NCBI GenBank assembly: GCA_965221695.1
Contig: OZ244905.1
Location: 1,952,001-2,016,000, forward strand
Reading direction: 5' to 3'
DNA: 64,000 nt
Source: Gammaproteobacteria bacterium
Lineage (GTDB): Bacteria > Pseudomonadota > Gammaproteobacteria > Eutrophobiales > Eutrophobiaceae
Below the pieces are notes generated by a model. That model was given only the letters and a program-made list of their open reading frames with translations. It was not told the origin of the DNA and searched no databases. The position numbers and the translations under genes were made by a program. Each line of letters opens with the position of its first letter. The stretch's first letter is position 1. Below, one piece after another: positions 1 through 18,388 of the stretch.

Positions 1-2
1 TG

Positions 3-848: not shown

Positions 849-850
849 CG

Positions 851-1336
851 ATGGTAAAACATATTCTCAGTCTTTTTCTTAGCAGTTTTGTACTAACCTC
901 GTGTTCTTCTGGATTGCTGGAGAGGGAAAATAAATTCATGTATTTACACTTGGGCGAATCCAGTTACGCTGAGTTGGTGGATTTTTTGTATGAGTTTGCC
1001 CGAAAGCATCGTTTAACGGTGTTGTGGTTTGGCGCCTACGAGGTAGAGAACCCGACGCATTGGTATGAATATGCGAAAGAAGCACTTGATGATCCTGAGT
1101 ATGGTGGGTTCAGGGGGTTTAAGATCAAGCTGGAGTTGTTGACTGAGGAAAACGGTTATTTATTTATTAACGACTATTTTGATGAGAAAATTGCTGCTAC
1201 AGTTATTGACTATGGCGATGAGAAAGCCGTTTGGCTTGAGATCGTTGACGAGTTTAAATACGCTTTAGTAGATCGCGGGTGGCGGTTGGAGGATATTTCA
1301 GATGCGAAAACAGAAAATAGAGTTGGATCGACCTAA
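851..1336 (+). CDS. Putative immunity lipoprotein for the first Rhs tip
   Basis: ATG 2 nt after the toxin stop; hydrophobic N-terminus ending in a lipobox (VLTS-C); low GC. Confidence 0.65.
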   Translation: MVKHILSLFLSSFVLTSCSSGLLERENKFMYLHLGESSYAELVDFLYEFARKHRLTVLWFGAYEVENPTHWYEYAKEALDDPEYGGFRGFKIKLELLTEENGYLFINDYFDEKIAATVIDYGDEKAVWLEIVDEFKYALVDRGWRLEDISDAKTENRVGST

Positions 1337-1403
1337 CTGTTTGCCCCCACCAGATATTCCATTACCACTCGGACCAAACAGCCTAACAAAGGCACGAGGT
1401 GGC

Positions 1404-1531
1404 GAAACAGGGTCGGGCCTACCTAACTATTTTTTCCATTGAGTTGATGTATCGTGGGGGTCTGTTCTGCTCCCTTAAATCCCACTTTTATTCCGTAAAA
1501 ACGAAATTCTAAGATTATTTTCCCTGTTTAA
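1404..1531 (+). repeat. ~130-bp junction repeat, full copy 1
   Basis: Aligns along its whole length with 9029-9158 and the reverse complement of 10715-10844. Ends AAACAGGG / CCCTGTTT are inverted complements. Confidence 0.9.
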
Positions 1532-4273
1532 CTGAGACGACCTACGACGGCTGGGGCTATCCGAGCGCGCTGACCACGTCCACCGTGGACCATACCAACA
1601 GCAAGCGTTTTCAGCAGGTACAACGGCTTTGACGAGCTGGTCGAGCGCGCCGACGCCGTGGGCAACCGCCAGACCCGCGCCTACGACGGGTTGGGTCGCC
1701 AGACAGTCCGCAAGGACTACGCGCCCGGGCCGACGAGCGCCGTTGCCGACGATGTGCTGGCGGGGACGACCACCTGGACCTATGACGCGCTGGCGGGGCA
1801 ACCGGCCTGCGCGACGGCGCTGGGGCAGTTGTGCCAGGTCGCGCACAGCGCGGCCCGCGCCGAGACCCGCGCCTATCACTACGACAGTCTCGGGCGCGTA
1901 ACCCAAACCACGCAGGACCGGGGCGCGGACGGGACTTATTACAGCAAACAGACCTACGATGAATACGGCCGGCCCTACCAGCGCTTTGACGCCGCCCGCG
2001 CGGGGTCGGCGACCCTGCGCTGGCAGGACAACGTGGTGGAGACGCGCTATAACGCCAACGGCTATGCGCACCGATGGGTGGACGGGATGTACGTGGGCGG
2101 CCAGCCACGCCGCACCTACCGGGAGATTGCCGGCATCGACGCCCGCGGCAACGTGACCCGGGAGAACCTCGGCGCCGGGGCGGTCAGCGTGCGCCGCGCC
2201 TATGACGCCAAGACCGGCCGGCTCGCCGGCATCACCGGCGAGGACCCCTTGGAGCGCACGCTGCAAGACCAGACCTATACCTGGGATATCGTGGGCAACC
2301 TGACCGAGCGCGCGCAGACCCTCGGCAAGACCACGTTAGAAGAGACCTTCGCCTATGACAGCCTTAACCGGCTGATCCAATCGAAGGTTGCCGGCGAGAC
2401 GGCGCGAAACGTGACCTACGACGGGCTGGGGAATATCACCGCCAAGACCGGGGAGGATGGCTTGTTGGAGCAGTATGTCTACGGCGACACGGACCGCCCG
2501 CACCGGCTCACCCAGGCCGGCAGCGCCCACTTTGTCTACGACGCCAACGGCAATGTCATCCAAGAGCACGAAACCGACCAGGCCGCCAACCCGACGCGCA
2601 GCTTCGCCTACACGCCGTTTAACAAGGCGGCGTCCATCAAGCAAGGCACGCACACCACCGAGTTCGAGTACGGCCCGGACCGCAGCCGCACGCGCAGGGT
2701 GGACACCGTGAACACCGGCGCCGGGACCAGCGTGACCACGACCCTGTATTTCGGGGGGGCCGAGAAGGTCATCGCCCCCGATGGCAGTTACACCTGGAAA
2801 CGCTATGTGGCCGACGGCTTTCTCATTGAGCAGACCTATAACAGCCATGACACCCTCACTAAGGAAGATACCCGCCACCTGCTCAAAGACCACCTCGGCA
2901 GCATTGCCCTTATCCTTGATGAGGCGGGCCTCGACAAGGACCTGCTGCCGCTGCAACGCTTAAGCTACGACGCCTGGGGCCAGCGCCGCGCCCCGGATGA
3001 CTGGACCCTCTTAGCCCGCCTGACCCTGAGCAGCCCCACCCATGGGGCGGTAACCCCGTATGGCTACACCGGCCATGAGATGCTCGACGCGGTGGGCATC
3101 ATCCACATGAACGGGCGCATCTACGACCCTAAGCTCGGCCGCTTCCTGCAGGCCGACCCGGTGATTCAGTTCCCGAACATGGCCCAGAACCACAACCGCT
3201 ACAGCTATGTGCTCAACAACCCGCTTGCCTATGTGGACCCGAGCGGGTATTTTATCGGGAAGTTGTTCAACAAGGTGTTCCGGGGACTGAACAAGCTGCT
3301 CGGGGACTTCGCCCCGTTCTTGAGCATTGCCTTGTTGGCCATCCCGGGGATGCAGCTTTGGGTGATGGAGTCCTGGATGCGGGCGTTTGCGTTCGGGTTT
3401 GTGACCGGCGGCATTGCCAGCGGCTCGTTCAAGGGGGCGTTATTCGGGGGTATCAGCGCCGCGGCGTTCTATGGGATAGGGCAGAAGTTTGTGAAGCCGA
3501 CGGGGTTCTTCAAGCAGGGCGGTCTTGGGCATGTGCTGGCGCACGGGGTAACCGGCGGCATTATGGCAGAGATACAGGGGGGTCAGTTCGGTCACGGGTT
3601 CCTGGCCGCTGGCTTGACCAAGGCGGTGATGGGCCGGTTTGACTATGCCGACCTCAGCGCCTCGGCGGTGACGGGGCGCGTGGCGATTGCCGCCATTGTC
3701 GGCGGCACCATCTCCCGCATCACCGGGGGCAAGTTTGCCAACGGGGCTTTGACTGCGGGCATGGCGCAGTTGTTGAACCGGGAGACGTCAGCGGCCCGGC
3801 AGCGGGAGGCCATACTCAAAGAAGCCGGGATTTTAGGGTTTACCAAAGATGGCGTGCCCATGTTTGATCCAGAGCATTCGGATTACCATCTCTATATGGT
3901 CACCAATTCCTGCTCAATGAGTTCGGCAGGTTGCAACTTGGCTAACGCAAAACAAGCGCATCTGAGATACCCCTCTCCCCGGAGGGGATCAAATGCGCCA
4001 GTTAAAGATGAAGGAGTCAGTTCCATTCCATTTCTCGGCAAGGTCCGTCATGAAGTATACGGAGGTGGGAGTGTGATTATTAACATCACGCTGGAAGGGC
4101 ACCTTCTGTATCCCGGTATTGTGGTGCGGTGGCTGGGTTCTGACGGGTCTAATGTCTACATCCATACGTATGGTATAGGCACTGGGCCTTGGAAGGGCCT
4201 AAATCAGAGTTTGTCTGAACGGTTATGGCGTGAGGTGGATAACGATATGTTTGAGTACATGGGGCAGCAATAA
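1531..4273 (+). pseudogene. Orphan Rhs module (partial YD core, PxxxxDPxG site, pre-toxin region, toxin tip); longest ORF is 1658-4273
   Basis: YD repeats; GYTGHE...MNGRIYDP..GRFLQADP core motif; NNPLAYVDPSG at ~3214-3247. Rhs-like coding (TETTYDGWG) begins at 1531 without a start codon and shifts frame at TTTT 1608-1611. Confidence 0.85.
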
Positions 4274-4286
4274 AGCTTGGTAAACC

Positions 4287-4574
4287 ATGAATACAGCACT
4301 AAGAGTCTCAACGGAAATCGTCTTTTATTCTGTTCTCGTTATCGTAATGATTTATGTACTTGACGATATTGCAGGCGTTATAACGCTGAATCGTGAGACC
4401 GGGCAGAAGATATCTCGAGTGTTTATGGCAGGTCCGCCGGTATCATTGATTTTATCTCAACTGTCTTTGTTCATTTTAAAAGACTGTCGTTATCTATGGT
4501 ATCTCATCATATCCACTTTAGAACTGGAACTATTAGCGGGATTTGTTTTCATGTTCCTCTTTGCTGTGGTTTAG
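4287..4574 (+). CDS. Putative membrane immunity protein (95 aa)
   Basis: Directly follows the Rhs tip; about three hydrophobic segments; paralogous to 4698-4970. Confidence 0.7.
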   Translation: MNTALRVSTEIVFYSVLVIVMIYVLDDIAGVITLNRETGQKISRVFMAGPPVSLILSQLSLFILKDCRYLWYLIISTLELELLAGFVFMFLFAVV

Positions 4575-4697
4575 ATTTTTTCTACGCATAGATATAAGCA
4601 ATGCTTGCAGAAGGTTAGGGATGTCACTGACATTCAATATTATCTGCGCAGGGTATCTGCAACCTTTGCGTGCTGCCAACCAACGAGGTGAGCACTG

Positions 4698-4970
4698 ATG
4701 CTGAAAACACTGCTGAAATTTTTAATGGATTTCATTTTTTATTCTATCTTAGTTATCGTAATTGTGTTTCTGGTCAGCAATGTTGCGGAACTAATCAAAT
4801 TCGAGTTGAAGACTCGTCAACTGCTATTTGCTATGGCAATGACCGGGCCTGCAATATCGCTCATTTTATCTGCAATCTGCTATTACGTTTGGCAGGACAT
4901 TCGTTATCAGTGGTACGTGATAATATCGAGCTTGGAGATGATAGGAGCAATATATTTATTTTTGATGTGA
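4698..4970 (+). CDS. Putative membrane immunity protein, paralog of 4287-4574 (90 aa)
   Basis: GAGG RBS upstream; shares FYS.LVIV, GP..SLILS and D.RY.WY.IIS.LE with the previous ORF. Confidence 0.7.
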   Translation: MLKTLLKFLMDFIFYSILVIVIVFLVSNVAELIKFELKTRQLLFAMAMTGPAISLILSAICYYVWQDIRYQWYVIISSLEMIGAIYLFLM

Positions 4971-5046
4971 CTCTATGTCCGGGCTTTCGACCATCACCCG
5001 CTGCCGGCGGGCGTATGCCCAAGATGGCACAGCGCGCTCGTTGGCC

Positions 5047-5105
5047 GAAACAGGGTCGGACCTGCCAAACTAAAACGAGGTTTTAAGATTCTTTTCCCTG
5101 TTTAA
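5047..5105 (+). repeat. Junction repeat, internally deleted 59-bp copy retaining both ends
   Basis: GAAACAGGGTCGGACCTGCCAAACT is fused directly to AAAACGAGGTTTTAAGATTCTTTTCCCTGTTTAA. Confidence 0.85.
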
Positions 5106-5307
5106 GAATATGAGCACGTAACTGTAAAAGGGTTATTTGTATCTAAAAAAAGTTCCTTTGGATTTTGAGTTTCCAAAAGACGATACCGAATTAAAATAGC
5201 CGTACTTGTCGCTGTCTGATTTGTTGTCTGTGATCTCGGCAGGGTATGTATTTATGCCTTTTCGGCATGCTCGTTTGTATTGTTAGAAATACAAACGGCA
5301 GTGTTAC

Positions 5308-5351
5308 TTGTAATTAGCCCGAATTAGGCAGTAAAATGCCCATAATGGGCA
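5308..5351 (+). promoter_or_regulatory. Putative promoter and autoregulatory operator of the MNT-HEPN operon
   Basis: TTGTAA-N18-TAAAAT; perfect inverted repeat TGCCCAT-A-ATGGGCA at 5337-5351 and a degenerate copy at 5316-5330. Confidence 0.45.
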
Positions 5352-6007
5352 ATATGACAAGTATGAAGTATTTTCAGGCGCCAGCGCACAATACCAATGA
5401 GCCGTTGGCGGCCGCGCATACCAGTCTGGCAGGCGCATTATTCACATCCACCCAACAGCGAGTTCTGGCTTTGCTCTTTGGCCAGCCTCAGCGTAGCTTT
5501 TATCTATCCGAGATGATCAAACGAACCGGTTCCGGTTCTGGCGCCGTGCAACGCGAACTCAAACGGTTGGTTGGTAGCGGTTTGGTCAGCGTCAAACGAA
5601 TCGGCAACCAGCAACATTACCAAGCCAATCCGACTGCTCCGATTTTCAATGAGTTGTGTAGCATGATGAACAAGACCGTGGCCTTAGTCGAGCCTTTGCG
5701 CGCCGCGCTGGCGCCCTTGGCAGAACACATAACCCTGGCGCTGCTGTATGGTTCTGTTGCAAAAGGCACGGACACAGCCAACAGCGACATTGATGTGCTC
5801 ATTGTCGCCCATGCGCTTACGTTGGAAAACATTTACAGGATCTTGGCCCCGGTAGAGCGTCAACTGGGTCGCAGGGTCAACCTGACATTATATTCCCCGG
5901 AAGAGTTTATCCAACGAAAGGAAACCAACAACGCCTTCCTCACCCGGGTGTTATCCGGCGAGTGCCTGGTATTAATAGACAATACACATGAGCCACCCAT
6001 TACTTGA
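5336..6007 (+). CDS. HTH plus minimal nucleotidyltransferase (MNT) antitoxin; start codon uncertain
   Basis: N-terminal winged HTH (GAVQRELKRL); GSVAKGTDTANSDIDVL nucleotidyltransferase motif; overlaps a HEPN-type gene. Confidence 0.85.
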   Translation: MPIMGNMTSMKYFQAPAHNTNEPLAAAHTSLAGALFTSTQQRVLALLFGQPQRSFYLSEMIKRTGSGSGAVQRELKRLVGSGLVSVKRIGNQQHYQANPTAPIFNELCSMMNKTVALVEPLRAALAPLAEHITLALLYGSVAKGTDTANSDIDVLIVAHALTLENIYRILAPVERQLGRRVNLTLYSPEEFIQRKETNNAFLTRVLSGECLVLIDNTHEPPIT

Positions 6008-6148
6008 TAATCTGGCGCGTATCGACAAACTGAAAACCGAGTTGCCTGCGTATTTCACTGAATCCTGCCACCCGTTTCACGTGAAGGCTGCCACCCGGAA
6101 CGCAGCAAAGCTGCCACCCCCCGGCGCGTGATGACGTGGGTATTGTCA

Positions 6149-6907
6149 TTATGACTCTGTTGGGGTCATGGCCGTCAATGTTTTTTTCTGTTTTCGCATG
6201 GATTCTCCCTTGAGGTTGATTTTATACGCATTGTGTACCAGGCGGTCGAGGATGGCATCGGCGAGTGTGGGGTCGCCGATCATGGCGTGCCATTTTTCGA
6301 CCGGCAGTTGACTGGTTGCCAGAGTGGAGTGTGCGCCGTGGCGGTCTTCGAGGATTTCGAGCAGGTCGCGGCGATGTTCGGTGGTCAACTTGACCAGTCC
6401 CCAGTCATCAAGGATGAGGAGTTGTGTTCTGGCCAGGGTGTGGATGAGTTTGGGGTAGCGCCCATCGCCTTTGGCAATAGTGAGGTCCTGGAGGAGTCGG
6501 GGCAGGCGCAGGTAGAGGGCGGTGTAGCCGGTCCGGCAGGCGCTGTGCGCCAGGGCGCAGGCGAGCCAGGTTTTCCCGACGCCGGTGGGGCCGGTGATGA
6601 GGATATTGAGGTGGTCACAGAGCCATTGGCAGGTGGCCAGGGATTGCATCAGGGCTTTATCCAGTCCGCGCGGGTGGAGGTAATCGATGTTCTCGATGGT
6701 GGCCTGGTGTTTGAGTCGGGCGCGTCGCAGTCGGCTGGCGGTGCGCCGGTTGTGGCGCTCGGTGAGTTCCCGGTCGACGAGCAGGCCGAGGCGTTCCTCG
6801 AAGGTCAGGGCGTCGATATCGGGCAGGGCCATTTGCTCGGTGAGGGCGGCCGCCATCCCGGTGCATTTCAGGGTGTGGAGTTTGTCCAGGGTTGGATGTG
6901 TCAGCAT
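6149..6907 (-). CDS. istB: IS21 helper ATPase IstB
   Basis: Walker A GPTGVGKT, Walker B LLILDDWG, ADAILDRLVH motif. Confidence 0.95.
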   Translation of the reverse strand: MLTHPTLDKLHTLKCTGMAAALTEQMALPDIDALTFEERLGLLVDRELTERHNRRTASRLRRARLKHQATIENIDYLHPRGLDKALMQSLATCQWLCDHLNILITGPTGVGKTWLACALAHSACRTGYTALYLRLPRLLQDLTIAKGDGRYPKLIHTLARTQLLILDDWGLVKLTTEHRRDLLEILEDRHGAHSTLATSQLPVEKWHAMIGDPTLADAILDRLVHNAYKINLKGESMRKQKKTLTAMTPTES

Positions 6908-6926
6908 AGCGCTCTCCTGTTGTGGG

Positions 6927-8468
6927 TTAGTGGTAATAGGTCGGACCACGGATATTGTCGTGCGCCGCGGGGAGCTCCATCTCGGTCTGCTCGGTCAGGG
7001 GTTGGTTGTCGAGGCCGTGGCGGAGGATGGATTCGATACTCTTGTAGCTGTGGCTGCCCAGGGTCAGAGCGCGTCGGCAGGCGGCGTTGAGCCGGTCATT
7101 GCCGTAGGTGTTACTCAGGCGCAGGATTCCCAGACAACTCCGGTAGGCTTGCTGGGGGTGTTTGCGGGCCGTCAGCCGCTGGCGGACCAGCCGTGCCGTG
7201 GCCGCACCGATACGGACGGCCCAACGTTCCAGGCGTTGCGGGGACCACTCGCCGGCCTGCCGGTGTGCCTCGGGCATATGGGCCGGGACGGTGGTATGGC
7301 GGCCTTTATGGTGTGTGCGCCGATGGCTGGCGATGCGCTGGTTGCGGTAGAAGCACTCAATGGTGTTGGCGGTGATGCGCACCTCCACCTGTTTTTTAAT
7401 AAACGCATGCGGCACTGAGTAGTAATGGCCGTGCACCTCGACGTGATAATCAATATGGACCCGGGCCTGCTTCCACTCGGCGTACTCATACGCATCGACC
7501 GGCAAGGGGCGCAGGGCCGGTTTATCCAGTTGCGCAAACAGGGCGCACCGACTGCCCGGCAGTTTCCTGAAGGGGCGCCGGTTGAGCCGCACCAGCAACT
7601 CGCCTATGGCCCGGTTCAACTCGGCCAGGGAGAAGCACTGACGGTGACGCAACGCAGCCAGGATCCAGCGCTCCACCACCTGCACCCCGACCTCGGCTTT
7701 CGCCTTATCCCGGGGCCGGCGCACCCGCGCCGGAATGATGGCCACCCCGTAATGCGTGGCCAGGTCCTGGTAGGTGGGGTTGATGTCCGGCTCATACCGA
7801 TGCGCCTTACTCACCCCGGCGCGCAAATTGTCCGGCACCACCACCTCCGGCACACCGTCCAAGTAGGTAAAACAGCGTACATGCGCGCCGATCCAGTCTG
7901 CCAGACCCTGGGTCCAGGTGGCCTCAGCATAGGTGTAGTTCGATGCGCCCAGCACCGCCACGAAGATGTTTGCCTCTCGCACTGCCCCGGTTACCCGGTC
8001 GATAACCTGGGCATGCATCCCGGCATAATCTACGAACAGCTTCTCACCGGCATGGTGGGTCTGGCGCATGACCAGGTCCAGCTTGCCGGCCCAGGCCCGG
8101 TACTGTTGGCAGAACCAGGTATACTGGTAGCCGTGCGGATGAGTCCGACGATATTCCTGCCACAGCAGCATCAACGTCACGCCCGGACGTTTCAGTTCCC
8201 GGTGCACAGCCGCCCAATCGGGCACCCCGCGCGCCCTAGCCGGCTGGACCGGCGGGGGCGGAAACAGCAGGCGATCCAGTGCCCTGTCATCCAACTCAAC
8301 CGGCAACGGCCAATGCAGCCCGGCCGCCTCAGCCCGGCGCAGGTATTCATTTACCGCCGGACGGGATATGCCACAACTCCTGGCCGTTTGGCGTTTGCTC
8401 AGGCCCTGGCCCCAGCACAAGCGTAATACGTCTTTTATCTTTCTCATGGACAACCTCTTTGCAGGCAT
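6927..8468 (-). CDS. istA: IS21 transposase IstA
   Basis: N-terminal HTH; DDE-type core ([22 protein letters not shown]). Confidence 0.95.
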
Positions 8469-9028
8469 CTGCGGTTCCTCCTTTCAATTGAAACAAGGAC
8501 ACAGGATACCTGTGGTTATCCACGTCAGACGCGCCGGCTATCTACCTCCTTGGGGGTGGCAGCTTTGCCGTGTAATGGGTGGCAGCTTTCGTGTGAAATG
8601 GGTGGCAGCTTTGCCGTGTAATCGGTGGCAGCTTTGCTGTGAAATACGCAAGTTGCCCTCAGAAACAGAGATTCAAGGGCTGTTGAGTTCCGGTTTGCGA
8701 CGGCTTCAGGATGCCATCAATGCAGAACTCAGTCTTGAAAGCCGTTTCGACCTTGCTTATAACGCGGCGCATGCGTTTGCGCTGGCAGCGCTGCGTTTTC
8801 ATGGCTATCGGTCTGAATCACGTTATCTGGTTTTTCAATGTTTGCAACATACAATTGCTTTACCCACCGAACAATGGCGCATTCTCGACCAGGCACACCG
8901 CAAGCGTAACTTGGCCGAATACGAAGGCGACATGGATGTAGATGAACAACTTGTTGCTGCTCTTCAACGAGTAGCATAGGAAGTGGAAAGCAGGGTCACC
9001 AAACTGATATCGCCATGATAGCGTCGGC

Positions 9029-9158
9029 GAAACAGGGTCGGACCTGCCTAATTATTTGTTTCCATTGATCTGATTTGTTGTAGGTGTCTGCTCTGCTCTC
9101 TTAAACCCCACTTTTTTGCCGTCAAAAACAAAGTTCTAAGACTCTTTTCCCGGTTTAA
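9029..9158 (+). repeat. ~130-bp junction repeat, full copy 2
   Basis: Colinear with 1404-1531; begins 10 nt after the HEPN frame ends. Confidence 0.9.
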
Positions 9159-9215
9159 CCGAGACGGTCTATGACGGCTGGGGCAATCCGAGCGCGCTGA
9201 CCACGACCACGGCGG
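9158..9215 (+). pseudogene. Rhs core stub (TETVYDGWGNPSALTT) matching the start of the orphan Rhs at 1531
   Basis: About 50 nt nearly identical to 1531-1580, then similarity stops. Confidence 0.75.
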
Positions 9216-9396
9216 GCGCTGCTATGCGACCCGCAAGGCGGATGGGAGTTGGTGTTTCTGATTTTATGGAGATGAGAACCGGGTGACAACGAATGCTTAG
9301 GACTTCATCTGTAGTAAGTCTGTCGCTTAACTTCTGGAAGTCACAACTTGATCTGACACTTCACTTGCAAATGTGAGGCTTGTCGGTGCCGGTGCG

Positions 9397-9696: not shown

Positions 9697-9925
9697 GCTT
9701 GGCCTTCCATATGGCTTTTATTTCAAGGTGGTCAACCAATTTACCATCAATGGCTGCCTGGATACCCTCTTCTACCTCTCGGACCAACCATTCTTCATGC
9801 TCCACATACTGCTTGATAGCATGCGCCATTAACCAGTCGCGGGATATTCCTTTCGCCTCAGCTATTTGCCTTGCTCGAATCAAGATATCCTCATCCAGTC
9901 TTACGAATATTGCTTTTAACGACAT
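9677..9925 (-). CDS. CopG/RHH-type antitoxin
   Basis: VRLD...SRDWL...AIKQYVEHEEW...EEGIQAA..G pattern; GGAGA RBS; overlaps the toxin start. Confidence 0.85.
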   Translation of the reverse strand: MSLKAIFVRLDEDILIRARQIAEAKGISRDWLMAHAIKQYVEHEEWLVREVEEGIQAAIDGKLVDHLEIKAIWKAKHAAQVD

Positions 9926-10714
9926 ATAAGTTCTCCTTGGCCGCACCAGGTTTTTGGATTATACCCGATTTCACCCGCATTAATACGGCACATACGTCTT
10001 AGTTATCGTATAACTCAGCCAGAAACGCGCCTTATTGTTCAGGCCCGAAGTCGGTACAATTCATCGGCAATTGCACAATGATTTTTCTGCAGAACTGCTG
10101 CTACGCATACCCTTTGACGTGAGTGCTTTGGCGATGAGTGGTAATATGACGGAATATAAATTTACACGTGCTTTAATAGAAAGCGTAGAACATGGGGCAC
10201 ATCACTTCATTACATCCGGTGTGATAGAAACAACAGAAATTATCAAGCAGGATCAGAGCGGAACACCGCTCAAACATCTTGCTATTCGAGACCATCGAAA
10301 ATATGACGGATGGGAGAAAGCAGCATGACAGAAACTGTCCGAAATCAGGGTTTTTTTCCATCGCCCCTAAGTGGTACGGCAGCCTCATCACACCACTTGC
10401 CAGCTTCTCTTGATTGGTCCAGTCTGTCAGTCCGTATTAAAAACCGGACAGTTCTCATTCCTGATAAGATGAAAACAATGCAGAATTTAAATATCTCTGA
10501 AACTAAAACAACTGTCGTTCTTCGTCGGAATAAATTGCTTCAATATCGGATTCATCTGAAGGGACAGAATTTTTTGTCAGATCGTAAACCCCGGTCATTT
10601 TGCCTGGCCAAAACGACAAATTGCCTCTGGCAGTCGGTGTAGTTCACCGTCTGCAACTGCCCCAGGCTATAGGGTGTCCCGTCTTAGGGATATGGATCGT
10701 ATTGAGTCATGTCG

Positions 10715-10844
10715 TTAAACAAGGATAAAGAATCTTAAAACCCCGGTTTTGACGGCAAAAAGTGGGGTTTAAGAGAGCACAACAGACACCTGCAACAAAT
10801 CAGCTCAATGGAAACAAAGAGTTAGGCAGGTCCGACCCTGTTTC
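10715..10844 (-). repeat. ~130-bp junction repeat, full inverted copy
   Basis: Reverse complement reads GAAACAGGGTCGGACCTGCCTAACTC...CCTTGTTTAA and aligns with 9029-9158. Confidence 0.9.
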
Positions 10845-10999
10845 TCTCAGCATATCATCATGAAGTATTTGAGGAATATGGATTGCCTGCTAACACTTTT
10901 GGCGGCACGCCGCTAACAGGCGCGCTTTGGGAGGCGGATATTAATTTCGGCAAAGCGTTGGGCCTGCCCTATTGGTGCGAAGGGTGTGCGCCGAAATGA
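10845..10999 (+). pseudogene. Start-less C-terminal stub, probably a toxin tip (AYHHEVFEEYGLPANTFGGTPLTG...WCEGCAPK)
   Basis: Open frame from the repeat boundary; its TGA overlaps the next ATG (ATGA at 10996-10999). Confidence 0.55.
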
Positions 11000-11715
11000 A
11001 CGCATTAGTGAACCTGGTTCGTGCCTTCTGCCTGTTTCTGGCAGTTATTTCGATGAGCGCTGATGCGTTTGATATGGATACCGTCAAGATCAAGGTTGGC
11101 AAGCATCATTTGACTGTTCCAGAACGCTATATGATAGAGCCTCAGATACCAATCTGGTTGCGTTGGGTGCCGGGACTGGCGCCGAGCGAGGGGGGCATCA
11201 TACTTGATATAAAAGCGGAAGACATCGCTGCTGAAGTGCCGGGTTATCAAATCTATGACGGCCGATATAAGGCGGATTGCATACTGCTTATCCAGGTCAA
11301 GGGTGAAAAAGAATTAAAGACATACCTGGACCCGCATTGGCATTATTATAGTGACATGTGGTACGGGCGCGGTTTTTACAGCAATCGAGTTGTTGAAAAG
11401 CATGCGCGCTCTGGATTTTATAAATTATATGACAAAGGCATTGAATCATCTTGGCGTGCTGTAAGAATTTACCCGGATGCCAGCCAACCGATACCCGATG
11501 ACCCGTTTGCTTTTTGGGTGGCGAGCTGTCTAAATGGGACTTCTCCCAGAACGCGAAGTGGCCGGATAACGAGGTGCAAGACCAGGATAATATACGATGA
11601 CCTGCTCTTGGATTTTGGCGTGGCTGAATTTAATTTGCATTTGATTGATGAAGTCAGAGCGATGATGCTTAGGCAGTTGTTGCTATGGAAGGGTGAAATG
11701 GTAGCAGTGGAGTAA
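10996..11715 (+). CDS. Exported hypothetical protein, putative orphan immunity protein
   Basis: Signal-peptide-like N-terminus (..FLAVISMSADA); coupled to the upstream stub; followed 4 nt later by the repeat core. Confidence 0.6.
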   Translation: MNALVNLVRAFCLFLAVISMSADAFDMDTVKIKVGKHHLTVPERYMIEPQIPIWLRWVPGLAPSEGGIILDIKAEDIAAEVPGYQIYDGRYKADCILLIQVKGEKELKTYLDPHWHYYSDMWYGRGFYSNRVVEKHARSGFYKLYDKGIESSWRAVRIYPDASQPIPDDPFAFWVASCLNGTSPRTRSGRITRCKTRIIYDDLLLDFGVAEFNLHLIDEVRAMMLRQLLLWKGEMVAVE

Positions 11716-11719
11716 CAGC

Positions 11720-11737
11720 GAAACAGGGTCGGACCTG
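11720..11737 (+). repeat. Junction repeat, 18-bp core only
   Basis: GAAACAGGGTCGGACCTG, identical to the start of the copies at 5047 and 9029. Confidence 0.85.
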
Positions 11738-11887
11738 AATAAATGCAAGCTTACCAAAGACGCCTGGGGCAACGACTACCGATATGAAGCGCCTGGAAAA
11801 AACGGACTCTATGATCTATATTCCTATGGCGCGGATAATTCCTCCGGGGGCTCTCGCGAAGACAGGGATATTGTCAGTTGGGAGTAA
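11735..11887 (+). pseudogene. gspG: 3' fragment of type II secretion major pseudopilin GspG
   Basis: LTKDAWGNDYRYEAPGKNGLYDLYSYGADNSSGGSREDRDIVSWE* matches the GspG C-terminal pattern DPWGNxYxYxxPG...D.YSYGAD...GG...D.DI. Confidence 0.8.
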
Positions 11888-11982
11888 AAGTGGCATCACC
11901 CTGGTCGAATTATCGTTTATCTATACGACAATCTGTATAGATTTCCGGGATTGTTTGAATATAACAGAACGAGGGCGAAGCG

Positions 11983-14900
11983 ATGGCAACTGCAAAAGAA
12001 AAAAACGATGCGCCTGACAACATGTCCACCCCTTACGAGATGGATTTAAGCGCCGACGAGTATACGTTTGAAGGGTGGATTGACGATAACAAGGACCAGG
12101 ACTGGGTCAAAATCCAGCTCACAAAAGGAATATTGTACACCATTACGCTTCAGGGAAAAGGCAGCAAAAACGTTCAGGCTGCCGATCACACCGTGCTGAT
12201 ACTCTACGACGCAAAGGGAAATGAAATCGCTCGCTCGGATGCGAGTTCACGTTCTTCCTCAAGTTCAACAATAGACTTTACTGCGCCGGCAAATGACGTA
12301 TATTTCCTCAGCGCCGGCGTCAATGCAGTGGATAAGAAAAAGGATTATTCGGGTCATTATGAAATTAAGGTTTATGAGTCCAAGCCGCAGGATAAAGATG
12401 AGGGGATAATATTCAAGGGCACAGCGGCCCCTGAGGTAATAGAAGGCGGGAAAGGCAACGATCTGCTCGACGGCTTGGGAGGTGACGATACGATATACGG
12501 TTATGGCGGCGACGACACGATAACAGGCGGCGATGGCGATGACGTTATCGTTGGTGGGCCGGGGGCTGACAAACTCGATGGCGGAAATGACATTGATTTA
12601 ATTGCGTATTTCGATTCACCGGCAGCAGTCAAAATAAACCTGCTCTATCGCACAGCCTGGGGCGGTGATGCCGAGGGAGATAGGATAGGTCCGGATATTG
12701 AAGGGGTGGCAGGATCCGACTTTGAAGACGAACTGGCGGGAAATGATGGGTTCAACATTATCTTGGGCGGCGCCGGTGATGACATCATATACGGATTGGG
12801 AGATGTTGACTTATTACTCGGCGAAGCAGGTGACGACAGGATAAACGGCGGCAAGGGTCCTGATTATATTGTTGGAGGTGAGGGTGACGATTCTCTATTC
12901 GGCGAGGATGGCGATGATCAGTTGATAGGAGAGGCCGGCAATGACAAGCTGTATGGTGGAGCTGGCGATGATTGGCTGACAGGACAGACCGGTGATGACA
13001 AGCTGAATGGCGGCGCTGGCGGTGATGCGCTTGAAGGAGGCGCCGGCAATGATACTCTGGATGCTGGTGCTGGCGATGATACGCTAGAAGGAGGCGTCGG
13101 CGATGATACTCTGGATGGTGGTGATGGCGATGATCATCTGGCAGGAGGGGCCGGCGATGATAAGCTGTATGGTGGCTATGGTAATGATAGGCTGACGGGT
13201 GGGCCAGGCGCTGATGATCTAATCGGTGGTCCTGGCAGGGATGTTGCCTCATTCCATTATTCGAACGCGGTGACAGTGCGGCTACATTCATTTGAGTTGA
13301 GCGGCGGCGATGCCGAGGGCGATACTTTTGGTGGCAGGGGCGATCCAATAGTATATACAGACGAGGACGGCAACGAGAAAACGTTCATACCAGCCGATAT
13401 TGAGGATCTTCAGGGATCCACTTCTAATGACACTCTGGCCGGCGATATCAGAGCTAATTTCATCGATGGCGGTTCAGGGGACGACAACATCCAAGGTATG
13501 GCTGGCGATGACTTCCTGGATGGCAATGATGGTGATGACATTCTTGATGGCGGCGCTGGTGATGATACGCTGCGAGGCGGTTCAGGTAGTGACCATGTGA
13601 CAGGCGGAGGTGGCGCTGATACGCTCGAAGGCGGCCCCGGCTGGGATACATTATCGTATTATGATTCACCCGAAGCAGTTGAGGTGAACCTGTCATCCGG
13701 CTTAGCCAAAGGTGGTGATGCTGAGGGAGATACATTAGGGCTGGGTTTTGAATATCTGGAAGGTTCCCAATTTGCTGACAAACTGACGGGCAACAGCGAC
13801 CGTAATACGATATGGGGTCGCGCTGGTGATGATGTTCTTGAAGGAGGCGCGGGCGATGACCTTCTGGATGGTGGCGTGGGCGACGATTCGCTGAATGGCG
13901 GCGCTGGGTATGATTTGTTGAGAGGTGGACCCGGCGCTGATGAGCTGATCGGTGGTCCTGGTGGGAATATGGCCTCTTTCTATTTTTCTGACGCTGCGGT
14001 GACAGTGCGTCTGCATTCCTTCGAGTTAAGTGGTGGCTATGCCGAAGGCGATACATTTGGTGGCAGGGACGACCCCATAGTGTATACAGACGAGGAGGGC
14101 AACGAGAAAACGTTCATCCCTGCTGATATTACTAGTCTCCGAGGCTCTGAATGGAATGACATTCTGGTTGGCGATATCAGAAATAATTTCATCGGGGGAG
14201 TTGGTGGTGATGACAAGATTCAAGGCATGGCGGGCAACGATTACCTATATGGTGGCGATGGCAATGACATCTTGGATGGCGATGATGGTGATGACTTTCT
14301 TGATGGTAGGCAAGGCAATGATACTCTGAACGGTGGCGCTGGTGATGACTGGTTAGAAGGCGACGCGGGTGATGATACGCTGCGGGGTGACGCAGGCAAT
14401 GACCATGTGGCAGGTGGCGCGGGCGCTGATACGCTCGAAGGCGGCCCGGGCTGGGATAGATTATCCTATTTCGATTCACCCGAAGCAGTAGAGGTGAACC
14501 TGTCATCCGGTTCAGCCAAAGGTGGTGATGCCGAAGGGGATACGATAGGGCTGGATTTTGAAGTTCTGCATGGTTCTGAATTTGACGACAAACTGACGGG
14601 AAATAGCGGCAATAATTTCATATGGGGTTACACCGGCAATGATGCTCTTGAAGGAAGCGATGGCGATGACCTTCTGGAGGGTGACGCGGGCGACGATTCA
14701 CTGAAAGGCGGCGATGGCAATGATGAACTGAGAGGCGGAGCTGGCGCTGATGAGCTGATCGGTGGTCCTGGCAGGGATGTTGCTGCATTCTATTATTCGG
14801 ACGCGGCAGTGATAGTGCGTCTGCATTCCTTTGAGTTGAGCGGCGGCGATGCCGAGGGCGATACCTTTGGTGGCAGGGACGACCCCATAGTGTATAGAGA

Positions 14901-17166
14901 CGAGGAGGGCAACGTGAAAACGTTCACACCAGCCGATATTGAAGGTCTGATTGGTTCTAAATGGAATGACGTTCTGGTTGGTGATATCAGGGATAATGCC
15001 ATCCGAGGCTTTGATGGTCATGACAACATCGTAGGCATGGCTGGCAATGACACTTTGGATGGCAATGATGGTAATGACATTGTTTATGGTGATGCTGGCG
15101 ATGATACGCTGCGAGGCGGCGCAGGGAATGACTTTTTGGAGGGTGGCGCAGGCGCTGATACGCTCGAAGGCGGCACGGGCCGGGATACACTATCCTATTT
15201 TAATTCACCTGAAGCAGTTGAGGTGAACCTGTCATCCGGCTTAGCCAAAGGTGGTGATGCCGAGGGTGATACCTTAGGTTTGGATTTTGAGAAGCTGGAA
15301 GGTTCCGAATTTGCTGACAAACTGACGGGGAACAGCGGCAGTAATTTCATATGGGGTTATGCAGGCGATGATGCTCTTGAAGGTGGCGCAGGCGATGATG
15401 TTCTGGAGGGTGGCGCGGGCGACGATTCACTGAAAGGCGGCGATGGCGATGACGAGTTGAGAGGCGGCGCCGGTGATGATCATGTGACAGGTGGCGCAGG
15501 CGCAGATACGCTCGAAGGCGGCCCGGGTCTGAATACACTATCCTATATTAATTCACCCGAAGCAGTTGAGGTGAATCTGTCAACCGGTTTGGCCAAAGGC
15601 GGTGATGCTGAGGGTGATACCTTAGGGCTGGATTTTGAAAGTCTGATTGGTTCCAAATTTAATGACAAACTGACCGGAAACAGTGGTAATAATTCGATAC
15701 TTGGTGGCAGGGGTAATGATACGGTGCATGGCGGCGCTGGCGATGATACGCTGGATGGACACGATGGCGATGATGATCTTAGAGGTGGAGCGGGCAATGA
15801 TGGTTTGTACGGCGACTCTGGTGACGATTCGCTGAATGGTGGTGATGGCGATGATGATCTTTGGGGATATCCCGGCAATGATACCTTGATCGGTGGCGCC
15901 GGCGATGATCTACTGCACGGCGGCAGTGGTAACGACAATCTGGAAGGTGGTCCTGGCGCGGATGTGCTCTATGGTAGCGTCGGTGGAGATTCGCTGCACG
16001 GCGGCATTGGTAATGACTATGTGGAAGGTGGCCCTGGCGCGGATGTGCTTAATGGTGGCGCTGGCGTTGATAATTTGTCTTACATTGGCTCGATGGAAGC
16101 GGTCGAAGTCGACCTGTCATCGGGTTCAGCCAAAGGTGGTGATGCAGAGGAAGATACATTGGGACTTGATTTTGAAAATGTTCAAGGTTCTCAATTTGCT
16201 GACAAGCTGACCGGGAACAGTGGCAATAACGTGATACGAGGCCAAGGCGGTAATGATACGCTACGTGGCGGCGCCGGCAATGATGAGCTTCACGGCGGGA
16301 AGGGAGAAGATATATTGTGGGGTGACGCTGGCAATGATACGTTTTATGGCGGCGAGGACAATGACATCATCTACGTTGACGGTATGGATGATGATGCAAA
16401 TATTGATGGGGGCAGTGGCCATTTTGATATTGTGTCCTACGAACATGCAGGATTGAGTGAAGGTGTTACAAAAAACATCAGTGATTTTAATGGCATCGAA
16501 TATATCATCGGCACGAGCCACGCTGACACGCTAACAGATGACATTGATATGGGGAATAACTATCTTGAAGGCGGTCCGGGCGCTGATACTCTTGACGGTG
16601 GCGATGGATATGATTATTTAGCGTATAGCCAATCCAGTGAGGGAGTAACAGTAAATCTATCGACGAATATCACCAGTGGCGGTGATGCTGCCGGCGATAC
16701 CGTGAAAAACTTCGAGGCTATCGCCGGGTCTGAGCATAATGATAATTTAACCGGTAACGATAGTGATAATAATTTATTTGGCCTGGGCGGTGACGATAAT
16801 CTTGCGGGTGGCGCCGGCCCGGATCTTATTTTAGGTGGACAAGGCGATGACACATTGACGGGTGGGAGTGGCAATGATCTTTATTTGTTCTTCCCCGGTG
16901 ACGGGGATGACGTCATCACGGATTTTGGTGATGGTAGTGATGTGATCATACTCGCCGATTTTAACTCTAGTATTGAGAGTGTGGATCTTAAAACTATTAT
17001 AAGCCAAGAAGGCGATGATGTGATTTTTGATCTGGAGGACTTTGGCGGCGGGTCAATAACAGTGCAAGCTAGCGAGGACAATACCGTAAGTGTTTCTGAT
17101 TTTATTGATGAGAACGGAGAGACAACGGATGTTTTGCTCATTTCATACTCTGAATCTGCCGCTTAG
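11983..17166 (+). CDS. Large RTX/hemolysin-type Ca-binding repeat protein with an N-terminal PPC-like domain, probable type I secretion substrate
   Basis: Dozens of GGxGxDxLx nonapeptides; repeated GGDAEGD modules; no N-terminal signal peptide; DQDWVKIQL...YTITL..G N-terminal beta domain. Confidence 0.9.
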   Translation: MATAKEKNDAPDNMSTPYEMDLSADEYTFEGWIDDNKDQDWVKIQLTKGILYTITLQGKGSKNVQAADHTVLILYDAKGNEIARSDASSRSSSSSTIDFTAPANDVYFLSAGVNAVDKKKDYSGHYEIKVYESKPQDKDEGIIFKGTAAPEVIEGGKGNDLLDGLGGDDTIYGYGGDDTITGGDGDDVIVGGPGADKLDGGNDIDLIAYFDSPAAVKINLLYRTAWGGDAEGDRIGPDIEGVAGSDFEDELAGNDGFNIILGGAGDDIIYGLGDVDLLLGEAGDDRINGGKGPDYIVGGEGDDSLFGEDGDDQLIGEAGNDKLYGGAGDDWLTGQTGDDKLNGGAGGDALEGGAGNDTLDAGAGDDTLEGGVGDDTLDGGDGDDHLAGGAGDDKLYGGYGNDRLTGGPGADDLIGGPGRDVASFHYSNAVTVRLHSFELSGGDAEGDTFGGRGDPIVYTDEDGNEKTFIPADIEDLQGSTSNDTLAGDIRANFIDGGSGDDNIQGMAGDDFLDGNDGDDILDGGAGDDTLRGGSGSDHVTGGGGADTLEGGPGWDTLSYYDSPEAVEVNLSSGLAKGGDAEGDTLGLGFEYLEGSQFADKLTGNSDRNTIWGRAGDDVLEGGAGDDLLDGGVGDDSLNGGAGYDLLRGGPGADELIGGPGGNMASFYFSDAAVTVRLHSFELSGGYAEGDTFGGRDDPIVYTDEEGNEKTFIPADITSLRGSEWNDILVGDIRNNFIGGVGGDDKIQGMAGNDYLYGGDGNDILDGDDGDDFLDGRQGNDTLNGGAGDDWLEGDAGDDTLRGDAGNDHVAGGAGADTLEGGPGWDRLSYFDSPEAVEVNLSSGSAKGGDAEGDTIGLDFEVLHGSEFDDKLTGNSGNNFIWGYTGNDALEGSDGDDLLEGDAGDDSLKGGDGNDELRGGAGADELIGGPGRDVAAFYYSDAAVIVRLHSFELSGGDAEGDTFGGRDDPIVYRDEEGNVKTFTPADIEGLIGSKWNDVLVGDIRDNAIRGFDGHDNIVGMAGNDTLDGNDGNDIVYGDAGDDTLRGGAGNDFLEGGAGADTLEGGTGRDTLSYFNSPEAVEVNLSSGLAKGGDAEGDTLGLDFEKLEGSEFADKLTGNSGSNFIWGYAGDDALEGGAGDDVLEGGAGDDSLKGGDGDDELRGGAGDDHVTGGAGADTLEGGPGLNTLSYINSPEAVEVNLSTGLAKGGDAEGDTLGLDFESLIGSKFNDKLTGNSGNNSILGGRGNDTVHGGAGDDTLDGHDGDDDLRGGAGNDGLYGDSGDDSLNGGDGDDDLWGYPGNDTLIGGAGDDLLHGGSGNDNLEGGPGADVLYGSVGGDSLHGGIGNDYVEGGPGADVLNGGAGVDNLSYIGSMEAVEVDLSSGSAKGGDAEEDTLGLDFENVQGSQFADKLTGNSGNNVIRGQGGNDTLRGGAGNDELHGGKGEDILWGDAGNDTFYGGEDNDIIYVDGMDDDANIDGGSGHFDIVSYEHAGLSEGVTKNISDFNGIEYIIGTSHADTLTDDIDMGNNYLEGGPGADTLDGGDGYDYLAYSQSSEGVTVNLSTNITSGGDAAGDTVKNFEAIAGSEHNDNLTGNDSDNNLFGLGGDDNLAGGAGPDLILGGQGDDTLTGGSGNDLYLFFPGDGDDVITDFGDGSDVIILADFNSSIESVDLKTIISQEGDDVIFDLEDFGGGSITVQASEDNTVSVSDFIDENGETTDVLLISYSESAA

Positions 17167-17372
17167 AGACTTTAACAAAAACTGTGTAAACCGCCCATCA
17201 TTAACCTTAACGTCGCACCTGGTGTCAACGCTGGCAAAACCTGAGCGTCCTGTTCCGCTACCCGGATGACATTCGCAAGGCGACTTATACGACAAACGCC
17301 ATCGAATCCCTGAACTGCGTAATCCGCAAGGCCGTCAAGAAGCGCAAGCTGTTCTCGTCGGACGATGCGGCG
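17166..17372 (+). mobile_element. IS256-family remnant (terminal-repeat-like sequence plus transposase C-terminal fragment)
   Basis: 17214-17372 encodes W..W.NL..LFRYPDDIRKATYTTNAIESLNCVIRKAVKKRKLF. GAGACTTTAACAAAAACTGTGTAAAC at 17166 resembles IS256 ends. Confidence 0.8.
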
Positions 17373-17412
17373 GCCTTCCGCGGACAGGAAGTTAAATGCC
17401 CTACAGGCAGTG

Positions 17413-17937
17413 TTATCCAGGCAAAAGAAACAGCTTGAAGGCGGTGAACAGCGAACCCGTGAATGCAGCTTGAATCAGGACAATTTTTACCATCAGTCGT
17501 AATTCCAGATTCTTGAGCCGGTGGTCCATCGATATTTCCTGCTTCTCCATCTCGTGGCGTAGCGATGTTTCCATTTTCTCCATATCGCTACGAAGGGATG
17601 TTTCCATGCTCTCCATATCGCCCCGCAGATTCTCGATGTCACCGCGAAGCGATGCTTCCATCTTCTCCATATCGCTACGAAGCGCTGTCTCCGTCTTCTC
17701 CATGTCGCCCCGCAGGGATGTTTCCATTTTCTCCATGTCGCCGCGAAGCGCGGTTTCCATGCTCTCCATATCGCTACGAAGCGTAGTCTCCGTCTTAGCC
17801 AGATCAGCCTTGGTCGCTACTCGCTCATTAATCGCATCTTGCACCAGTATCACCACCGATTCCGCTTGTTTGGCCTCCATGCCGGAGTCCTTCAAGCCTT
17901 GCGCCATCTTCAGCGTATAAAAAGCTACATCTGTCAT
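17413..17937 (-). CDS. DUF1640/CCDC90-like coiled-coil protein with a C-terminal membrane anchor
   Basis: FYTLK....L..SGM...QAE; ATKADL; 11-aa repeats (LRxDMEKMETS); hydrophobic C-terminus. Confidence 0.8.
   Translation of the reverse strand: MTDVAFYTLKMAQGLKDSGMEAKQAESVVILVQDAINERVATKADLAKTETTLRSDMESMETALRGDMEKMETSLRGDMEKTETALRSDMEKMEASLRGDIENLRGDMESMETSLRSDMEKMETSLRHEMEKQEISMDHRLKNLELRLMVKIVLIQAAFTGSLFTAFKLFLLPG
17550..17795 (-). repeat. 33-bp intragenic tandem repeats, about 7 units
   Basis: Recurring TCTCCATATCGCTACGAAG / CTCCATGTCGCC units. Confidence 0.85.
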
Positions 17938-18159
17938 TTTTCCGTCTCCGATCTTGTTGTTCATTTCACTTGGCCGGAACGCCGACCTATGCTCCGCAGG
18001 TCATAAACCCAGCGGGAGGCAGCCCGGATTATTGTTCCCTTTGCATCACTGCCGCATCCGGCGACAGTTCGGGACTGCTCTCAGGTGTTACTCTATCTGC
18101 AAGTCTTCGAGGTTGTCAAATCAAAGTGTTTTTCAATATGAAATGAGCCTAAAAACTAG

Positions 18160-18176
18160 AATTAGGCAGGTCCGAC
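18160..18176 (-). repeat. Junction repeat core, inverted 17-bp fragment
   Basis: Reverse complement GTCGGACCTGCCTAATT is identical to 9037-9053. Confidence 0.7.
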
Positions 18177-18388
18177 TATGAATTCTGGATATCGTAATTC
18201 AGTTGTGTCTCGCTGTTTCCCCTCCAAGGTGACAGCCTTTGCTACGACACAGCTTACTCCGTTACCCCAAAGACAATGTTGCCAGAAAGTCTTTGGCAGG
18301 TTCGATGCGCGCGCCGTCAGGAAAGGATTTGCTCTGATTAAGCTGGGCGACGACCTGGGTTCGGGCAATCGATTGGTCAGCAAGAAAT

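Follow-up and report, generated by a model that had tools for sequence, protein, structure and literature searches.

A genus-specific repeat, probably the left half of a RAYT-derived element, at the junctions of an Rhs toxin-immunity array

A repeat of about 130 bp recurs between the genes of an array of Rhs toxin fragments, immunity-type genes and toxin-antitoxin cassettes in a gammaproteobacterium of the family Eutrophobiaceae. This raises the question of what the repeat is and whether it builds the array in which it is found. The stretch analysed here, referred to as the window, comprises 64,000 nucleotides (C1:1952001-2016000; contig OZ244905.1) of a genome, labelled G000, that was assembled as one contig and is 96.9% complete. 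An original prediction on this DNA held that the repeat is a recombination or insertion site at which Rhs tips, immunity genes and toxin-antitoxin modules are assembled and reshuffled by an enzyme encoded elsewhere. The repeat likely represents the left half of a mobile element that is specific to the genus, non-autonomous and derived from a RAYT unit (RAYT, transposase associated with repetitive extragenic palindromes, REPs), and it likely marks the junctions of old rearrangements. The repeat is therefore of a known kind, in an unusual setting.

Copies of the repeat in the genome and in the genus

The 19-nt core of the repeat occurs five times in the window, against 0.01 occurrences expected from shuffles, and the three full copies of the window (C, E and F) are mutually 81-88% alike. 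The copies found in the window are the following, in window coordinates.

~1316-1344, + strand: degenerate solo core, which gives the first immunity gene its last codons and stop
1404-1531, + strand: repeat copy C, a left-half element (nhmmer E 8e-35)
5047-5105, + strand: repeat copy D, lacking the inner part (model positions 1-25 and 95-129 remain)
9029-9158, + strand: repeat copy E (nhmmer E 2.7e-38)
10690-10844, - strand: repeat copy F (10715-10844) plus an extension of ~25 nt (repeat search, BLAST and profile)
11720-11742, + strand: solo core G (core search)
18150-18176, - strand: solo core H (core 18160-18176, 17/17 complementary), upstream of the 183-aa coiled-coil gene

Elsewhere in the same genome, the family is represented at these sites.

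genome 1947471: solo core A (genome-wide search)
genome 1950633-761: copy B, full, upstream of the window (BLAST and profile)
genome 2234988-5126: copy I, full (BLAST and profile)
genome 2237424-555: copy J, full (BLAST and profile)
genome 2237583-621: copy K, a 39-nt inverted partial copy (BLAST and profile)
genome 3054152: solo core M (genome-wide search)
genome 42885-42993 and 563057-563176: L and N, relatives of ~70% likeness (genome-wide search)

The layout described in the original prediction was recovered throughout. Its three full copies, including the inverted one at 10715-10844, were found by repeat search, BLAST and profile; the copy at 5047-5105 indeed keeps both ends around an internal deletion; and the cores at 11720 and, inverted, at 18160-18176 are in place, as are the 8-bp inverted ends and the GGTC-G-GACC palindrome, both of which can be read in the printed sequence. 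The genome-wide BLAST that it had recommended for the 130-bp element returned three further full copies, the partial copy K, cores and the two distant relatives. The degenerate core that it had placed at the end of the first immunity gene matches, at 24 of 29 positions, the stretch that directly follows the immunity paralogue located upstream of the window, and is thus an older, decayed copy that belongs to the immunity cassette.

Twelve of the genome sites cluster at 1947-1970 kb and 2235-2237 kb, and L, M and N lie apart. The pair formed by J and K is the only doublet in this genome, and the six full copies are one-ended. Most copies in G000 and in its sister species G008 have in common the ~25-nt extension seen beside copy F. 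A replication-strand bias was considered and dropped: 10 of 14 copies are co-oriented with replication by hand count, too weak a skew and one confounded with gene orientation.

To follow the family further, a repeat profile was built from 39 copies of six genomes (G000, G008, G020, G001, G004 and G018), with the RAYT loci described below left out. Other relatives are labelled G002, G003, G006, G013, G014, G015 and G019, and individual loci carry labels of the form L###. The repeat is present in 13 of the 22 other genomes of the genus and absent from all 18 genomes examined outside it, two of which belong to the same family. An exact degenerate pattern of the repeat was found in only five metagenome-assembled genomes, all of this genus, among 185,579 species representatives. 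Mean likeness between copies is 0.76-0.96 within a genome and 0.56-0.74 between non-sister genomes, with G000 and G008 at 0.79.

The neighbours of these copies are overwhelmingly accessory genes, commonly fragments of Rhs or other toxins together with small downstream genes. Genome G020 displays ten co-oriented copies, each located 3' of a different toxin-immunity module. Toxin-antitoxin pairs are also found next to copies (HigBA, HicAB, VapBC, ParE/Phd, BrnTA and RelE-type), along with an EcoO109I restriction-modification pair, AAA_14/DUF4143 ATPases and an MntA-like gene. Ordinary genes adjoin some of the copies, which are located between metG and rnfA, 3' of a sulfatase gene and 3' of tRNA-Asp. 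The last of these brought a tRNA-derived attachment site into consideration; it was rejected, with a single distant copy ~20 nt past tRNA-Asp and no tRNA at any of 16 scanned relative loci.

The AAA_14/DUF4143 ATPase genes recur beside the repeat in G000, G008, G004 and G018 (L002 10063-11445 and 12428-13693; L031, L035, L016 and L032). In both G000 and G008, the last codons and the stop of the ATPase gene lie inside the core.

A transposase gene between inverted cores

The gene content of G019 provides the link between the repeat and a transposase. This genome encodes a 261-aa open reading frame (ORF) with an HUH motif, which passes the Pfam Y1_Tnp model and has the repeat on both sides. One side consists of two tandem copies, whose opposite strand codes for the C-terminal tail and stop of the protein, and the other consists of inverted cores. 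The best NCBIfam match of this protein is REP_Tyr_transpos (E 2e-18), at 66.6 bits against a cut-off of 80 bits; the IS200 family scores far lower, and a search of solved structures gave no sequence match. Intact orthologues with 83-84% identity are encoded by G013 and G006, and each of the three genomes has one full-length match, that is, the gene is single-copy.

The arrangement around the gene is the same in all three genomes. The predicted protein measures 261-265 aa and the unit ~950 bp, and each of the three intact genes (L068, L069 and L070) lies between one + and one inverted GGGTCGGACC core, ~950 bp apart. Matches of the repeat profile flank the gene in G019, G013 and G006 with E values of 2e-18 to 9e-16, over model positions 5-126. 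As a comparison set, we took the surroundings of 22 further Y1-type matches of the genus and sought the core within 1.5 kb: it was missing from 20 of them, and the two exceptions are a cut IS200 fragment adjoining a copy (L042) and a locus that holds one-mismatch matches only (L078).

Intermediate forms connect this unit to the shorter repeats. In G001 and G003, pieces of the RAYT ORF (aa 1-38, 101-144 and 224-261) occur within copies or next to them, and in G001, G019, G015 and G002 the repeat extends to the right, through ORF remnants and the reverse-complemented ribosome-binding region, as far as an inverted core. A search with the ~310-nt form of the element recovered at least 12 full-length, dispersed, two-ended copies (~295 nt) in G019, which keeps the intact RAYT gene, and at least 12 in G001, which holds only gene fragments. 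Both termini were present in 12 of the 15 copies fetched from these two genomes, 293-327 nt apart. They read CAGGATA|GGGTC... and ...GACCC|TATACTG and are identical at 15 of 17 positions when inverted. None of the 12 copies with both termini displayed a target-site duplication, and the terminal heptamer is tandemly repeated outside several ends.

The 7-9 nt just outside either terminus are tandemly duplicated in several copies (e.g. tatactg-c-tatactg; L082-L096, from G019 and G001), and the outermost left repeat forms the stop codon of the upstream gene in three genomes.

Judged by its sequence, the 130-bp repeat of the window is the core together with the last ~40 codons and the 3' flank of a putative RAYT-type gene, read on the opposite strand. 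The ~295-nt two-ended form is recognisably the ~950-bp unit minus its predicted gene. On this evidence the family derives from a unit of ~950 bp in which two inverted ..ATAGGGTCGGACC.. cores enclose one RAYT-like Y1/HUH gene, and deletion of the gene turned it into a ~295-nt two-ended miniature inverted-repeat transposable element (MITE) resembling a REPIN, the inverted doublet of REPs. In the genome of the window, the transposase gene is absent, and left halves, one inverted doublet and solo cores of ~25-35 nt are all that survive.

This is reminiscent of REPIN-RAYT systems. These systems are described as a single-copy Y1/HUH gene flanked by its own inverted repeat, with inverted doublets that spread in extragenic DNA, singlets as their remnants, and lineage-specific variants (Bertels and Rainey 2011, PMC3116915; Bertels et al. 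2017, PMC5581495). The classical REP is characterised as a 20-40-nt hairpin-forming palindrome with a GTAG or CGTC tag (PMC3733652). The family described here likewise has a single-copy RAYT gene with inverted flanking repeats, dispersed doublets, singlets and lineage-specific variants. Unlike REPIN-RAYT systems, its doublet spans ~295 nt and is visibly the gene unit minus the ORF rather than two hairpins of 20-40 nt; its palindrome, GGTC-N-GACC, has arms of 4 and at times 5 bp and carries neither the GTAG nor the CGTC tag; its protein falls under the NCBIfam cut-off for RAYTs; and most of the genomes with many copies lack the gene.

MITEs arise from insertion sequences by internal deletion, relatives of IS200/IS605 among them. 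The present element resembles such MITEs in its terminal inverted repeat, in its descent by internal deletion from an autonomous unit and in its tens of copies, and differs from them in the lack of a target-site duplication, the single-copy source gene and the half elements found in the window. Rfam returned no family for the repeat in window positions 1-20000 or in four other loci, at E values up to 1. A covarying pairing of the termini holds in G000/G008, G020 and G004 and fails in G001; it is not used as evidence here.

Collectively, the succession from RAYT unit to long two-ended MITE, to half elements and to singlets of ~30 nt can be traced on sequence evidence, and it ties a transposase gene to MITEs and to REP singlets in a single genus.

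Junctions of the repeat and their possible causes

The left end of the element is sharp, with left flanks that differ between copies right up to the terminus. Among the 72 profile matches, 68 begin at model positions 0-19 and the right ends scatter over positions 30-169, a skew to which some detection bias towards the conserved core likely contributes. Five copies of G018, mutually 91-99% alike, have 165 to ~400 nt in common rightward and nothing leftward, and then join different DNA. In G020, the left end of a copy truncates an IS200 tnpA gene 3' of the HUH motif. Three IS200 tnpA fragments of this genome (C1:1070824, 644094 and 3614048) all end at profile position ~56-60; one of them adjoins the left end of the repeat, so that the truncated fragment may itself belong to a repeated unit.

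In the genome of the window, copies C and E end in ...GTTTAAC and join Rhs sequence at base 9808 of the main Rhs gene. Copy I joins it at ~11007 and copy B at 11479, both past the ~25-35-nt extension of the family, and the three joined positions display neither a target-like nor a common sequence. For copy D, the homology of the next cassette to G008 begins directly 3' of the last base of the copy, at a point that falls inside an open frame in G008. In the sulfatase-hydrolase region, G000 and G008 are 96-99% identical outside the island, and the identity persists for ~30 nt inside the core, where the ATPase gene ends. Past that point, G000 continues with the remainder of copy J and the inverted copy K, and G008 with 5 kb of different genes closed off by an inverted copy. 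Small duplications lie just 3' of the core, namely a 10-nt insert in copies I and J and a 19-nt duplication in G008. Among six long matches to G008 (at least 200 nt and at least 90% identity), two start at a repeat or insertion sequence boundary, and one further match, of 81% identity, ends at the repeat core.

Four public sequencing runs, X2 and X4 among them, were examined, all of them as contigs; X1-X3 contain 59-96% of the sampled words, and no RNA data set was among the public runs listed for this DNA. One contig of X4 carries a 10-nt insertion at 10821, 3' of the core of copy F, of the same kind as in copies I and J. In X2, three contig joints have one side exactly at 10844 (twice) or 9159, each seen in one contig with a shorter side of 37-42 nt. 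The 25-mers that flank them are multi-copy in G000, save at the right end of copy E. Given these multi-copy flanks and the existence of paralogous loci, the X2 joints are not counted as evidence, and an apparent joint of 5105 to 2018 was discarded, as it is merely the paralogous locus of copy B.

By the reading that we favour, no enzyme specific to the repeat is active in G000 at present. This genome gave no match to Y1_Tnp (PF01797), to the G019 RAYT protein or to Resolvase (serine recombinase), and its two tyrosine recombinases pass the XerC and XerD cut-offs and fail those for integron integrases. A search for Y2 transposases found none in G000 and none in 14 control genomes either, and is thus uninformative. 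Of the two kinds of enzyme that the original prediction had offered, the tyrosine recombinase is represented in G000 by XerC and XerD only. The other, a REP-associated HUH enzyme, is the right class, being the cognate one in G019, G013 and G006, and none is encoded in G000 itself. The prediction of a site that builds the array fared similarly: a discrete element does lie at the junctions of accessory cassettes, with 5'-truncated genes adjoining it, and a dedicated recombination system is not demonstrated, with only two of the six long matches to G008 starting at a repeat or insertion sequence boundary. The contrary outcome that had been named beforehand, a plain MITE, describes G019 and G001, in which the element is mostly dispersed and two-ended.

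We infer the mechanism behind the one-sided truncations. The element would have inserted just 3' of genes and beside earlier copies. Later one-sided deletions or insertions, starting at or near the core, would have stripped the right half of the element and the DNA that followed it, and could in this way have left the 5'-truncated Rhs core, gspG and a cassette gene. Co-oriented copies, together with ~2 kb of Rhs core homology, may then have provided portable homology for ordinary recombination, by which tip-immunity modules would be duplicated and exchanged. The junctions fit one-sided deletions and insertions anchored at the element and followed by ordinary recombination, for which a cassette recombinase is not needed. 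Active cassette shuffling is not established, and a cassette recombinase that has since been lost is compatible with the junctions.

Several observations weigh against the derivation of the repeat from a decayed RAYT unit. Pairwise BLAST of the window copies against the RAYT units gives short matches only, and the link runs through profiles and intermediate sequences. Copies are very alike in genomes without RAYT, with a mean of 0.96 in G018 and 0.85 in G020. Such likeness is unexpected, as long-dead relics should have drifted more, and it calls for a recently lost gene, for gene conversion or for mobilisation by some other activity. The array of ten co-oriented copies in G020 is more regular than random decay of a MITE predicts. 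In addition, the palindrome arms span only 4-5 bp and the single-strand folding z-scores of three window copies are -2.3, +0.4 and +0.3, so that two of the three fold no better than shuffles and the element is without a classical REP hairpin.

Alternatively, the repeat may be kept as a regulatory spacer (an outward promoter, a terminator or an insulator) for orphan immunity genes, spreading passively with the modules. This idea draws on blocks that are conserved across species, including TTGCCR-N15-TAAGAT (read by eye), and on the position of the repeat, which in G000 and G020 constantly follows an immunity gene and precedes the next toxin fragment. We regard it as unlikely: the conserved blocks are accounted for by RAYT coding ancestry, a consensus scan called no promoter or terminator within any copy, and the internal AAACCCC/GGGGTTT stem is lost in G020. 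A further alternative, with which the homogeneity of copies within RAYT-less genomes would agree, is an enzyme that is supplied in trans or was recently lost. The core would then be the nick and strand-transfer site of an HUH enzyme that moves DNA between co-oriented cores and builds the arrays of repeat, truncated toxin and immunity gene, in a manner likened to the one-ended or rolling-circle transposition of ISCR/IS91 or to integron cassettes. The left end kept in 68 of 72 matches with nested right ends, the divergence of G000 and G008 beginning ~30 nt into the core, and the small tandem duplications by the core (copies I and J, G008, and run X4 at 10821) would all follow. So would the 5'-truncated genes that start 20-35 nt past solo cores A, G and H in G000, and likewise past direct solo cores in G020. 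It is nevertheless an unlikely explanation: G000 has no detectable Y1 enzyme or serine recombinase, and the Y2 search, with no match in any of the 14 control genomes, does not bear on the matter. In RAYT-bearing G019 the element is dispersed and two-ended rather than arranged in cassette arrays, and no circle or excision junction is demonstrated, the joints at 10844 and 9159 involving multi-copy flanks.

We likewise hold it improbable that a RAYT-type HUH enzyme nicks the DNA at the GGGTCGGACC core and runs from there to the next co-oriented core or to a random end, excising or copying what lies between. If that were true, arrays of toxin-immunity, toxin-antitoxin and restriction modules would be put together as "HUH cassettes", in a single-strand equivalent of integrons. 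It would amount to a new route to building defence and toxin gene arrays, and would provide a concrete function for RAYTs, whose cellular role remains debated. An actual integron or Xer module system is far more remote, and we give almost no weight to it. The repeats do resemble attC arrays in being co-oriented, of 110-140 bp and 3' of small cassettes with many toxin-antitoxin genes. They are homogeneous within species, the GCCTAAC of the core fits the attC inverse-core pattern, and XerC and XerD are the sole tyrosine recombinases found in G000. Unlike such arrays, they come with no integron integrase and are homologous to a transposase unit. Their far end lacks a complementary GTTRRRY, folding gives no conserved imperfect hairpin of the attC kind, and no 28-bp XerC/XerD site lies in the repeat. 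The only dif-like site of the chromosome, at 402235 and at the GC-skew maximum, bears no likeness to the core. Both an attC site and a Xer/dif site were rejected as identities of the repeat.

Derivation from a RAYT unit remains the reading that we favour, and small repeats with comparable effects occur elsewhere. Like the Correia elements and the REP clusters near variable loci of Neisseria, the present repeat flanks or disrupts toxin and secretion loci and serves as a deletion end-point. Its sequence is probably unrelated to that of Correia elements, which are characterised by a TA duplication and by inverted repeats of 26 bp.

The Rhs locus and its cassettes

The array begins upstream of the window with the main Rhs-family gene (C1:1933224-1946924), which encodes 4567 aa with a signal peptide and N-terminal tandem repeats of ~100 aa. 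It is followed by a 157-aa gene, core A, the orphan O1 (866 aa), a 158-aa gene, copy B and the orphan O2. After O2 come a ~161-aa gene with the degenerate core, copy C, the orphan O3, two small ORFs and copy D. A cassette with an MntA-like nucleotidyltransferase, split by IS21, follows copy D, and then copy E, Rhs stubs and two further small ORFs. Inverted copy F, a 247-aa ORF and core G come next, then the 3'-terminal 47 codons of gspG and a 1727-aa ORF, and the series ends with an IS256-family transposase fragment, a 183-aa coiled-coil gene and core H. The genes and insertion sequences that we annotated in the window are listed below.

3-848, + strand: 3' part of Rhs orphan O2 (whole ORF genome 1950812-1952848, 678 aa; 5' neighbour copy B)
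851-1336, + strand: immunity-type gene, paralogous to the 157-aa gene that follows the main Rhs gene
1532-4273, + strand: Rhs orphan O3 (open frame 1658-4273; internal deletion junction near 1618)
5336-6007, + strand: MntA-like nucleotidyltransferase (antitoxin-type) gene (Polbeta and NTP_transf_2 matches)
6047-8650, - strand: IS21-family insertion sequence (istA 6927-8468, istB 6149-6949, multiple terminal repeats)
9159-9255, + strand: short Rhs core stubs (junction at main-gene base 9808, as in copy C)
11741-11887, + strand: gspG C-terminal fragment (pseudopilin), directly adjoining core G
17413-17964, - strand: 183-aa coiled-coil gene, built of 33-nt repeats and multi-copy

The locus has the make-up of an Rhs orphan array, with a full-length main gene, start-less core fragments, distinct tips and small downstream genes. 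The orphans align to the main protein from residue 3707 or 3832 on, with 74-86% identity. O2 is 86% identical to residues 3832-4566 and matches RHS_repeat and DUF637, and O1 and O3, with 99.3% identity over 715 aa, carry different tips beyond. The original prediction of start-less gene fragments next to the repeat was upheld at three places. The Rhs core after 1531, where O3 starts, has 92% identity to main-gene bases 9808-9896 and then jumps to 11079; the stubs after 9158 join at the same base 9808; and the gspG fragment by the core at 11720 covers T2SSG positions 62-108 of 108 (E 7e-15) and TIGR01710 positions 89-134 of 134. A fourth, the possible Rhs stub at 10633-10710 on the - strand, did not hold up: its best blastx match to the main Rhs protein has an E value of 1.1, and its first ~25 nt belong to the extension that goes with the repeat family.

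Arrays of this type, consisting of an Rhs main gene and orphan tip/immunity modules whose tips are exchanged via core homology, have been described (Koskiniemi et al. 2014, PMC3967940). The present locus conforms to them in its main gene, in its start-less core fragments with their own tip and immunity gene, and in its core homology. Unlike in the described arrays, the mobile repeat, as a copy or as a core, borders the 5' side of each orphan in G000 and G020. Core homology accounts for tip exchange and not for the mobile repeat at the 5' edge of each orphan. In this genus, a mobile repeat, and not core homology alone, sets the 5' edges of orphan Rhs modules, and it likewise sets the edges of many toxin-antitoxin and restriction modules. 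Our literature search found no paper that ties REP or RAYT repeats to polymorphic-toxin orphan arrays or orphan edges, and returned the core motif only in unrelated primers. For annotation, the repeat can be used to flag accessory-gene junctions and gene fragments in these metagenome-assembled genomes.

The ORF of the immunity-type gene is listed from 701, and its start is probably the methionine of MVKHILS. Its paralogy was judged by comparing translations by eye, and the gene at 851-1336 matched no Pfam or NCBIfam family. The MntA-like gene matches MntA_antitoxin at E 1e-8, under the curated cut-off, and its cassette is unbroken in G008, whereas IS21 splits the version in the window. The 1727-aa ORF displays many 27-nt tandem repeats of the GGxGxD type, and its homologue in G008 scores as an RTX calcium-binding protein. 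Between this RTX-like repeat-rich gene and the coiled-coil cassette lies the C-terminal fragment of an IS256-family transposase (Transposase_mut; 17232-17360).

The coiled-coil cassette (17361-18161) has matches at five sites in G000 and in at least seven places in G008. It holds ~50 nt that resemble the 3' end of a DUF498 gene beside rpoS, as if the cassette had been copied out of the DUF498/rpoS site along with its flank.

IS21-family elements lie beside or inside repeat copies in three genomes (window 6047-8650; L030 4200-6700 in G004; L014 1-1540 in G001), which may reflect a target preference for the repeat or just for accessory DNA. Type II secretion genes, too, are broken or adjoined by the arrays in three species, through the gspG tail of the window (11741-11887), a split gspF in G020 (L026 16330-19200) and the end of gspE in G014 (L024 2-373). 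This suggests a hot spot inside or beside the type II secretion cluster that is common to these three species.

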